Assembly: GCF_056746865.1 (NCBI RefSeq)
Contig: NZ_CM163382.1
DNA: 64,000 nt
Strand: one strand, 5' to 3'
Positions 33,001 to 36,000 of the stretch are shown one piece after another; the first letter of the stretch is position 1, and the number at the start of each line of letters is the position of its first letter. Position numbers: made by a program.

Positions 33001-36000
33001 ACTGGAGCCTAACCAGGCGCTATTGCGAATAATGGTGCGAAACGCGCCATCTGCAAACCAATGTTTGATGTTAAAACCCGCCAATTCAGCCTGACCTTAT
33101 CGTTGATAGTAAAAAGTATCCCGCCAGCCTTAAGTTAAACTTCGGCGGTCAGAAACGATGGCAACCAGAGAAACCGCCTTCTGTGCCTGTTCCAGCACTT
33201 CGCTGTAGGGCGCTCTGGAATCAATCTCAAGAATTTTTGTGCCGTTATAGCCAATCTTCGACATGACACCGATTTTGTCCTGCAGCTCGGCATAGTCATG
33301 GTCAGGCTTGCGGGAGATGGCAGTCTCAATATCAATGCCCAGGCGAATAATTAATTCCGGGCGATATTGCGCCATTTGTTGGTATAAACGCCGTTCGCGC
33401 TGCGCCAGAAACATGCTGATTTTCCCGGTCGCACGTTCGACGCCAATCCCCGGTCCATCATAATAAAAGCCCGAAATTTCAGCCTGCGGGAAGCGATCGC
33501 TGACCACCAGAACGCCACTTTGCGCCAGTCGCTGAACCTTGCGTAGATTCGCCATTCTTCGCAGCGAGAAGCAGTACATAATCACCGCCGCCCATAGCGC
33601 CGGAGATTTGGTTTTCATGCTTTGGGTTTTCGAGGATTTGGCCGCCAGTCGCCGTTCCAGCCAGACGCCAACCAACGGCAATCGTTTGATTTTGTCGCCG
33701 TCTTCGCCGGAGAGCAGCCCCAGATAGCGCCGCTCGGTTTGCCAGTGTTGTTGCAGCGATTTCACCAGGTCGGTGGTCAGTGTGGATTTACCGGTGCCAT
33801 CACACCCGACCACCGCAATCAGCCCCGGAATGTAGTTGGGCTGCGGCGCGGTTGTACTATTAACAGTTTGAGTTTGTAGTGCATCCATTCGTTAAATCAT
33901 CCCCTATCCATTTTGGTGATCAGGAAAGCGCGGCGTGAATTGCGCGTTGTGACGCTTGCAGAATTTCATCGGCGGGGTGTCGCCCATCCAGTTCAAGGAT
34001 CTTTGCGCCATTGAATGTCAGTTGCGGCGTAACGGCGATTTTTTCCTGTAACGCTGCCAGTTGGTGGTCAGGTTTACGCGCAAACGCGGTTTGTTCATCA
34101 ATGCCAAGACGAATCAACAATACGGGCAAATAAGATGCCATCCATTGGTACAGCTTCAGCTCGCGCTGCCTTAACATTTTTATCCAACCGTTACCGCCCG
34201 TGGTTTTTGCCAATTGCGGGCCATCAAAGCGAAACCCCGGCACTTCAACCTGCGGGTAGCGGTCGGTGATGAGCAGAAAGCCTTGCTGGCTTTTACACAA
34301 CATTTTGCGAAACTTGTACGCCCGCCAGCAGGAAAGCAGATAGATAACCAGTGCAGTAATATTGCCAGGCGGTGTTGAGGGCTTTTCGTGCACATGTGCC
34401 GCTTTACTTCGCAGATAACGCCCAAAAGGTGCGCCAATAACAGGGAGCTGTGAAATCCATTCGCCAATTCGCCCGGACGATTGCCCGAGATAAATGTGTT
34501 CTGTTGGCATTCTTGCTGCCAGTTCATTTACCAGGCTTGCCGTGAGGGTCGATTTACCTGAACCATCACATCCTACAATGGCAATAACACGCACTGGCGT
34601 GGAATTAATTATTGACATATTACGTTGATTCACGAAAAACCCGGCAGTAAATAATGTATTGAATATTACGTGGTCCGTGCTCAGAATATCCGTTCAACCT
34701 TATTGTGACAATGGTTAATTGTGACATTGACCTGAATTACGCTTTCATAAAAACATATTAACCAAATAAATATTTTTAATGGATATTTAAATTAAAGGAT
34801 ATATTCATGCAGTCAATAACACCTCCATTAATTGCCGTTATTGGTAGCGATGGTTCAGGCAAGTCAACGGTGTGTGAACATCTTATTACCGTTGTCGAAA
34901 AATATGGTGCTGCCGAAAGAGTTCATTTAGGAAAACAGGCCGGAAATGTCGGTCGTGCAGTGACAAAATTACCGTTGATGGGAAAATCCTTACATAAAAC
35001 AATTGAACGAAATCAGGTGAAAACAGCAAAAAAATTGCCTGGACCAGTTCCGGCGCTGGTAATTACAGCGTTTGTCGCCCGTCGCTTACTGCGCTTTCGT
35101 CATATGCTTGCCTGTCGTCGTCGCGGGTTAATTGTTCTAACCGACCGTTATCCTCAGGACCAAATTCCTGGCGCTTACGATGGTACGGTGTTCCCACCTA
35201 ACGTTGAAGGTGGTCGTTTTGTCTCATGGCTGGCAAGCCAGGAACGTAAAGCGTTTCACTGGATGGCGAGCCATAAGCCTGATCTGGTCATCAAACTCAA
35301 TGTTGACCTTGAAGTTGCCTGTGCACGTAAACCCGACCATAAACGGGAATCGCTGGCGAGGAAGATTGCCATAACGCCACAGTTAACCTTTGGTGGTGCA
35401 CAACTGGTTGATATCGATGCCAATCAGCCACTGGAACAGGTGTTGGTTGATGCAGAAAAAGCGATTACGGATTTTATGACCGCGCGTGGTTATCACTAGT
35501 CAAAAATGGAAATGCCCGATCGCCAGGACCGGGCATTTTCAGGAAGGTTAAATCAACTGCAATGCTATCCAGTACAGCCCACCAGAAAGAAAAATTGCCG
35601 CCGGTAAAGTAAATACCCACGCCATCAGGATGCTGGTTACCGTTTTACGCTGTAACCCACCGCCGTCCACCACCATCGTCCCTGCAACTGCAGACGAGAG
35701 GACGTGTGTTGTGGAGACGGGCATCCCAATATAACTGGCAAGACCGATAGACACTGCCGCCGTCATTTGTGCCGCCATGCCTTGCGCATACGTCATGCCG
35801 CGCTTACCAATCTTCTCACCGATGGTCATCGCTACACGACGCCAGCCAATCATGGTGCCAATGCCGAGCGCCAGTGCTACCGCCATGATGATCCACACCG
35901 GAGCGTACTCAATGGTGCTTAACATATCGCTGCGAAGTTTTTTCAGCAGGTTCTGGTCTTCTTTACTGACGCCTGGCAGTTTCGCTAGCTTCGCGGAGGT

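Follow-up and report, generated by a model that had tools for sequence, protein, structure and literature searches.

Why does a sphingolipid locus of Escherichia coli carry three paralogous genes for small P-loop proteins, and what might those proteins do there? The question is raised by a 64,000-nucleotide stretch of contig NZ_CM163382.1 (NCBI RefSeq assembly GCF_056746865.1), hereafter the window, in which yghR, yghS and yghT (the trio) adjoin genes for the synthesis and export of dihydroceramide. We provide evidence that the three proteins share the fold of thymidylate kinase (Tmk), and that their triplication is an ancient and conserved component of a sphingolipid cluster type found well beyond E. 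coli. We propose, with about an even chance of being right, that the trio serves to phosphorylate the lipid head group.

Three paralogous proteins with the fold of thymidylate kinase

An earlier note on this DNA had described three related proteins of 230 to 252 amino acids (aa) with Walker A, DRYPQ or DRFPQ, and RKPDH motifs, two of them encoded in tandem on the minus strand at the head of a permease/flippase operon and one divergently, and had likened them to nucleotide kinases rather than ATP-binding cassette (ABC) ATPases. The open reading frames (ORFs), the motifs, the BLASTP comparisons and the gene layout bear out this description. Our ORF calls for the three genes coincide with those that RefSeq annotates in an E. 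coli strain of identical sequence. The Walker A sequences are GCDGTGKS, GCDGSGKS and GSDGSGKS in YghR, YghS and YghT, respectively (common form GxDGxGKST); the DR[YF]PQ motif falls at residue 131 of YghR (as DRFPQ), 124 of YghS and 113 of YghT (as DRYPQ in both), and RKPDH at residues 193, 186 and 174. Pairwise BLASTP identities are 45% for YghR and YghS (E 9e-65), 34% for YghR and YghT (E 6e-48) and 36% for YghS and YghT (E 3e-54), a similarity far above chance, and the three proteins are clear paralogues. They are strongly basic (pI 9.6-9.8) and soluble, no transmembrane segment having been found in any of them. Only 31 nt separate yghS from yghR, and yghT diverges from both; yghS is the first gene of a minus-strand string that runs yghS-yghR-yghQ-(274-aa ORF)-ytfJ-like-lptF-like-lptG-like, neighbouring genes being -4 to 45 nt apart.

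A family profile built from 47 members significantly matched the chains of solved thymidylate kinases (best E 1.7e-11), and the alignment is in register at the P-loop, the DRY motif, the acceptor-side helix Arg and the C-terminal nucleotide loop. R93 (YghT numbering, used throughout) corresponds in this alignment to the Arg in the 'ANRW' helix of Tmk, which binds the acceptor phosphate, and the trio combines the Tmk fold with a P-loop, a DR(Y/H) motif and a basic LID region. The AlphaFold2 (AF2) model of YghT has a predicted local distance difference test (pLDDT) score of 92.6. The relationship to Tmk proper is distant: identity to solved Tmks is 17-24%, the Pfam Thymidylate_kin model gives only sub-threshold E values of 0.09-0.29, and the three proteins score 32.3, 24.3 and 25.8 bits against a TIGR00041 cut-off of 83.25. 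The loop after strand 2, which contacts the acceptor phosphate in Tmk, reads [YH]LG[LQK]xSG in the trio as opposed to FPxR/TREPGG in Tmk, with the helix Arg R93 retained. We therefore assign the trio to a distinct, uncharacterised family of Tmk-fold P-loop phosphotransferases, an activity that we predict from sequence.

Several other assignments were tried and rejected. The ABC signature LSGGQ is absent from all three proteins, and fold and motifs together reject an ABC-type ATPase for LptF2/G2. The trio also lacks the GGDG motif and matches DAGK_cat in neither Pfam nor NCBIfam; homology to CpgB, a DAGK/LCB5-type enzyme with GGDG, was rejected for these P-loop proteins. Pfam gave no match to PPK2 (PF03976). 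Anti-phage defence NTPases were likewise rejected, PADLOC having returned just P-loop-level noise.

An ancient and conserved triplication

When 1.84 billion cluster representatives were searched with a profile, 2146 relatives were returned at E <= 1e-3. Gene neighbourhoods were taken from a pattern-seeded scan of one genome per species, in which the best 80 YghT matches returned 79 loci. The locus set spans the Enterobacterales (Escherichia, Citrobacter, Hafnia, Serratia, Erwinia, Pantoea, Sodalis, Rahnella, Rosenbergiella and others) as well as Rhodanobacter, Luteibacter, Halioglobus, Methylotenera, Nitrotoga, Rhodocyclaceae and two metagenome-assembled genomes (MAGs), one of Myxococcales and one of Sphingomonadales. 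Among the 49 loci flanked by 8 kb or more on each side, which belong to gamma-, beta- and deltaproteobacteria, 43 have R, S and T in exactly one copy each, and most of the 43 keep the arrangement R-, S-, T+. A neighbour-joining tree without bootstrap, computed from 138 non-redundant sequences, shows the R (40), S (37) and T (61) sequences each as perfectly monophyletic, with R and S as sisters. Since each clade is monophyletic, the triplication is older than the dispersal of the cluster among these groups, with all three copies retained.

All three clades share the catalytic-type residues G13/D15/G16/G18/K19, R93, D113-R114-x-P116-Q117, D125, E146, R174-K175-P176-D177-H178 and K186, and in each clade the P-loop G-x-D-G-x-GK, DRxPQ, R93, RKPDH, D125 and E146 are kept in at least 90% of sequences. 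Because these residues are retained in each, all three clades look active, as far as sequence can tell. Clade-specific positions are very few; the most suggestive is in the acceptor-side strand-2 loop, where clade R has Leu, clade S has Gln and clade T has Lys.

The trio is, then, an ancient and conserved component of the cluster, a result that is new relative to the searchable literature. So are the Tmk-like fold with its full set of kinase motifs, unrelated to CpgB, the constant pairing with a CHAD-like protein and the lipid-phosphate-editing neighbours in other taxa, the last two of which are described below. Already known were yghR, yghS and yghT as 'ATP-binding proteins' and the sphingolipid locus itself, which has been published.

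Linkage to sphingolipid and lipid-phosphate genes

The YghT orthologue has the serine palmitoyltransferase gene spt within 10 kb in 30 of the 31 enterobacterial loci with full flanks and in 8 of the 20 other full-flank loci, Rhodanobacter, Luteibacter, Methylotenera and Rhodocyclaceae among them. Across these taxa the trio is co-located with spt, acpR and cerR and with the export genes, as expected of a member of the cluster. Serratia proteamaculans carries the cluster in another chromosomal context, and there yghT separates the export operon from the spt operon. In related loci the flippase gene adjoins a kinase gene in 40 of 47 occurrences.

Outside the Enterobacterales, the neighbours are relatives of lipid-phosphate and lipid A enzymes. 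Two PAP2 families, one LpxE-like and one UppP/PgpB-like, occur near the trio; the LpxE-like PAP2 gene stands directly beside a kinase gene in 13 of 21 cases, in 12 of them on the same strand, and downstream of the YghT orthologue in the loci inspected. A gene for an LmtA-like lipid A 1-phosphate methyltransferase (E 2e-34, under the cut-off) adjoins a kinase gene in all 7 of its 7 occurrences. Further non-enterobacterial neighbours encode an OlsC/LpxO-like acyl hydroxylase, an LptA-like protein, a family 4 (GT4) glycosyltransferase and a resistance-nodulation-division (RND) efflux system.

The earlier note had placed the three genes beside a lipid cluster and 'flanking' it as an island. Their linkage to lipid genes reaches beyond E. 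coli, but the cluster had already been published as a sphingolipid locus, and 'flanking' is imprecise for what the comparative loci reveal to be a conserved part of the cluster. The note had further suggested substrate-specialised kinases, for instance of a lipid or its head group, or regulatory NTPases. Each paralogue is indeed an old, separately conserved lineage, which fits specialised, non-redundant roles, and phosphorylation of a lipid or its head group is a plausible role argued from fold and gene neighbourhood; for function, the searchable literature yielded nothing past 'uncharacterised ATP-binding protein'.

Two features of these neighbourhoods deserve separate mention. Of the 17 enterobacterial loci that carry a DgkA-type (DAGK_prokar) gene, 16 have it directly after the yghO/bCerS orthologue and on the same strand (among them L002, at 17090-17449, L022, L025, L028, L030, L035, L037, L039, L040, L042, L044, L051, L052 and L056). 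The gene is absent from the E. coli cluster and is a candidate cluster-specific ceramide kinase elsewhere. In certain beta- and gammaproteobacterial loci (L045, L053, L058, L059, L061, L067 and L075), the RND system, composed of two pumps of ~1040 aa, an outer-membrane factor and an adaptor, replaces LptF2/G2 beside a sub-module of YghT, CHAD-like and PAP2 genes, and might provide another path for export of the lipid.

The wider family includes many distant relatives of ~500 aa (P0163, P0169, P0172, P0185 and others) in which the kinase-like domain is C-terminal to an NTP_transf_5-like domain; that assignment of the N-terminal domain is weak, and the domain had no sequence match in the PDB. 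Some distant relatives (P0223 and P0266, of ~1000 aa, and P0247) have an additional fusion partner, either a MOP flippase or a GT4 glycosyltransferase; fusion of a MOP flippase to the kinase-like domain is rare and was seen in P0223 and P0266. At L083 a fusion-type gene (7223-8731) directly follows a flippase gene in a Wzx/Wzy polysaccharide locus with sulfation genes. Given these fusions and the L083 locus, the link between flippase and kinase-like domain extends past sphingolipids.

A CHAD-like partner

The most constant neighbour of the trio, present in 61 of 82 loci, is the gene for the 274-aa protein. This protein had no sequence match in Pfam, NCBIfam or the PDB, and CHAD (PF05235) was unmatched at E <= 10. 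Its AF2 model (pLDDT 94) is all-helical, most of its invariant positions are Arg, Lys or His and fall in CHAD-type motifs, and UniRef labels one orthologue a 'CHAD domain-containing protein'. In Foldseek the best TM-score went to 6qv5, at an E value of 0.36 that is not significant, and hhalign against YgiF and a YgiF-type CHAD profile gave a probability of 0.1, which is no signal. With moderate confidence, we regard the protein as CHAD-like. CHAD domains are polyphosphate-binding modules. Homology of the 274-aa protein to the N-terminal domain of the ~500-aa fusions was also considered and rejected, there being no similarity.

A possible role in head-group phosphorylation

We propose that the trio and the CHAD-like protein may form the head-group phosphorylation module of a gamma- and betaproteobacterial type of sphingolipid cluster, a reading drawn from fold and gene neighbourhood that we consider to have about an even chance of being correct. 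YghR, YghS and YghT would act at the cytoplasmic face of the inner membrane, transferring phosphate from ATP to a hydroxyl or a phosphate of the (dihydro)ceramide made by Spt, AcpR, AasR, CerR and YghO, or of its already phosphorylated form, and each paralogue would carry out a different phosphorylation step. The MOP flippase YghQ would then flip the anionic product, and LptF2/G2 would extract it with housekeeping LptB as the power source, by analogy with Caulobacter. The PAP2, LmtA-like and DgkA-type neighbours point to a phosphorylated head group. The trio itself is suggested for that role because no second candidate for a head-group enzyme is encoded in the E. coli cluster, and because the Caulobacter locus, which has no trio, carries Cpg head-group genes instead.

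Several points weigh against this proposal. No spt gene lies within 10 kb in 12 of the 20 non-enterobacterial full-flank loci; the locus set is biased to YghT-like sequences, and its genes were called as simple ORF picks. Distant relatives in Wzx/Wzy polysaccharide loci indicate that the wider family is not sphingolipid-specific. The Tmk fold occurs in kinases of small soluble molecules too, so that structure does not imply a lipid acceptor. In K-12 the trio is intact but orphaned, IS5 having deleted the biosynthetic genes, and the literature yielded no biochemical or genetic work on any of the three proteins.

The boldest form of the proposal, which we hold only tentatively and think unlikely to be right, is that the trio builds an oligophosphate head group on ceramide. 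Ceramide-1-phosphate would be extended to its di- or triphosphate, giving a hitherto undescribed class of lipid. One trio member or DgkA would take the first, hydroxyl step and the Tmk-like enzymes would extend the product; the CHAD-like protein would bind the phosphate-rich head group, YghQ would flip the lipid and LptF2/G2 would deliver it to the outer membrane, where in some taxa the PAP2 phosphatases and the LmtA-like methyltransferase would edit it. The Leu, Gln and Lys of the R, S and T acceptor loops could mirror a rising negative charge on the acceptor. This form is suggested because the closest relatives of the trio phosphorylate a phosphate and not a hydroxyl, because its partner is CHAD-like, because MOP flippases usually handle pyrophosphate-linked lipids, and because E. 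coli DgkA phosphorylates ceramide in vitro. The searchable literature gave nothing relevant on ceramide di-, tri- or polyphosphates, nor did it yield the structure and head group of the E. coli sphingolipid.

The trio might instead phosphorylate a soluble head-group precursor or nucleotide-type intermediate, which a transferase encoded elsewhere would join to ceramide. All of the nearest folds belong to kinases whose substrates are small and soluble (compare nucleoside monophosphate kinases, shikimate kinase and gluconate kinase), the trio proteins have no membrane segment, and the distant fusions to a nucleotidyltransferase-like domain or to GT4, together with the polysaccharide loci, hint at activation of a sugar or other precursor. 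In Caulobacter, moreover, the head group is made via a soluble, CDP-activated precursor (PMC12275187). Yet the E. coli cluster encodes no transferase able to attach such a precursor, and the paralogues are near-identical at the acceptor site, which fits three steps on one scaffold better than three metabolites; we consider this alternative unlikely, if worth keeping in view.

A regulatory or energising role for the trio as NTPases of YghQ or LptF2/G2, in substrate gating or assembly, would accord with the adjacency of flippase and kinase genes, with the rare fusions of the two and with the absence of a dedicated LptB gene from the sphingolipid locus. The retained DRY motif, acceptor-side Arg and LID-region RKPDH, however, are typical of transfer to a second substrate and not of hydrolysis, and the trio has no ABC motifs. 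MOP flippases, moreover, are not known to be ATP-driven, and LptF2/G2 in Caulobacter bind the housekeeping LptB; we rate this role as rather improbable. If the CHAD-like protein held polyphosphate as donor or product, the trio could work as polyphosphate-linked phosphotransferases in the manner of PPK2, but Tmk is clearly the closer fold and Pfam finds no PPK2 match, and the CHAD label itself comes from fold alone and lacks Pfam, hhalign or significant Foldseek backing; we judge this more doubtful still. That the three genes encode ordinary extra thymidylate kinases, as the RefSeq names of yghS and yghT and weak matches to dTMP kinase models have it, is scarcely credible and was rejected, for scores of 24-32 bits lie far under the TIGR00041 cut-off of 83, the Pfam values and the identity to solved Tmks are as poor as reported above, and synteny with a lipid cluster across many taxa opposes a role in the nucleotide pool.

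Three long-standing y-genes of E. coli, plus a CHAD-like partner that had lacked annotation, are hereby placed as a likely head-group module. If head-group phosphorylation by the trio is correct, these proteins would found a new lipid kinase family, unrelated to the known bacterial ceramide kinase. Anionic sphingolipids are consequential in Caulobacter, where they can stand in partially for lipopolysaccharide (LPS) and influence polymyxin sensitivity and virulence.

The locus in Escherichia coli

The 'lipid island' of the window (Table 1) has been published as the sphingolipid (dihydroceramide) locus of E. coli, and its exporters are of the LptF2/G2 type. Its five dihydroceramide synthesis genes were reported to form a cluster in C. 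crescentus and E. coli BL21 alone, and the E. coli AcpR, AasR and Spt proteins have been characterised (PMC9386255). Sphingolipid export in Caulobacter requires LptF2/G2, which bind the housekeeping LptB there, and the corresponding locus of E. coli UTI89 has been drawn (bioRxiv 10.64898/2026.04.12.717747). Part of the region from 22000 to 36000 is matched in 5160 of 5426 complete E. coli genomes and at least 80% of it in 4051 of the 5426, so that most of these genomes carry nearly all of the 14 kb; several complete genomes are 100% identical to the window segment over the 14 kb.

Table 1. Genes and intergenic region of the sphingolipid locus in the window
Feature	Coordinates	Strand	Length	Description	Source
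yghR	33130..33888	-	252 aa	Tmk-fold P-loop kinase-like protein, clade R; GCDGTGKST, DRFPQ, RKPDH	
yghS	33920..34633	-	237 aa	Tmk-fold P-loop kinase-like protein, clade S; GTG start; first of minus-strand string	
yghT	34807..35499	+	230 aa	Tmk-fold P-loop kinase-like protein, clade T; divergent	
yghS-yghT intergenic region	34634..34806		173 bp	AT-rich; presumed promoter region for both transcription units	
yghQ	31735..33084	-	449 aa	MOP-superfamily flippase	
unannotated protein	30911..31735	-	274 aa	All-helical, basic, cytoplasmic; best fold matches CHAD domains	
YtfJ-family protein	30339..30902	-	187 aa	N-terminal signal peptide, periplasmic	
LptF paralogue (lptF2 type)	29238..30308	-	356 aa		bioRxiv 10.64898/2026.04.12.717747
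LptG paralogue (lptG2 type)	28162..29241	-	359 aa		bioRxiv 10.64898/2026.04.12.717747
spt	26955..28127	+		Serine palmitoyltransferase	RefSeq, PMC9386255
acpR	26707..26955	+		Specialised acyl carrier protein	RefSeq, PMC9386255
epi/cerR	25761..26675	+		NAD-dependent epimerase/dehydratase-family reductase	RefSeq, PMC9386255
aasR	24076..25764	+		Fatty acyl-AMP ligase / acyl-AcpR synthetase	RefSeq, PMC9386255
yghO	22524..23666	-		N-acyltransferase, aca or bCerS in the literature	RefSeq, PMC9386255

In K-12 MG1655 (L086, 3130146-3132408), an IS5 element has taken the place of all that lies between the 5' end of yghO and a truncated yghQ. Lost with it are aasR, cerR, acpR, spt, both lptG2 and lptF2, the genes for the YtfJ-like and 274-aa proteins, and yghQ in its 3' part. 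Because this event orphaned the trio, K-12 phenotypes of yghR, yghS and yghT say little about their native role.

Two sets of RefSeq names at the locus look over-specific. The name 'dTMP kinase' is given to yghS and yghT, which score 24-26 bits against a cut-off of 83, and the proteins named 'LPS export ABC transporter permease LptF/LptG' pass the NCBIfam cut-offs, yet correspond to the sphingolipid-type LptF2/G2. The YtfJ-family protein shows an evident signal peptide (MMSSRLIIALIIMLLAPGVQA), and its gene accompanies the trio in 42 of 82 related loci, nearly all of them in Enterobacterales (30 of the 31 full-flank loci).

The spacer between yghS and yghT contains a 12-nt direct repeat at 34702-34729 (ATTGTGACAATG / ATTGTGACATTG, spacing 16 nt). 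A conserved regulatory repeat in this spacer was considered and rejected, the TGTGAC repeat being confined to Escherichia. Overexpression of SlyA in K-12 raised yghS 3.1-fold (PMC5797941); that the cluster is subject to silencing would be a guess.

Comparison with known systems

The trio differs from Tmk (PF02223, TIGR00041) in that the Arg loop for the TMP phosphate is replaced by a conserved LGxxSGxxG...LPxxG, in its extra invariant PQ, DG(P) and RKPDH motifs, in its basic proteins, in its three paralogues and in the placement of its genes within a lipid cluster. Systems that pair PPK2 with CHAD differ in turn, since neither sequence family is matched here and Tmk is the closer fold.

The closest comparison by locus is with Caulobacter and Sphingomonas, whose sphingolipid genes the window repeats in spt, acpR, aasR, cerR, bCerS, lptF2/G2 and a MOP flippase. 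The Caulobacter locus, in contrast, has no YghRST-type gene; it carries CpgA-D and accessory genes where the E. coli cluster has three Tmk-like kinases, the CHAD-like protein and the periplasmic YtfJ-family protein. CpgB, the Caulobacter ceramide kinase, is of the DAGK/LCB5 type with a GGDG motif (PMC10331486). It resembles the trio in being encoded in a bacterial sphingolipid locus and in performing a first head-group phosphorylation, as we propose for the trio, but it is not homologous to these P-loop proteins, which lack GGDG, and gives no precedent for them.

A functional analogy is offered by the lipid A pathway. There LpxK, the lipid A 4'-kinase, is a P-loop kinase that phosphorylates an outer-membrane lipid before Lpt-type export, and homologues of the enzymes that edit lipid A, LpxE/F, LpxT, LmtA and LpxO (as PAP2, LmtA-like and LpxO/OlsC-like proteins), are encoded beside the trio in other taxa.

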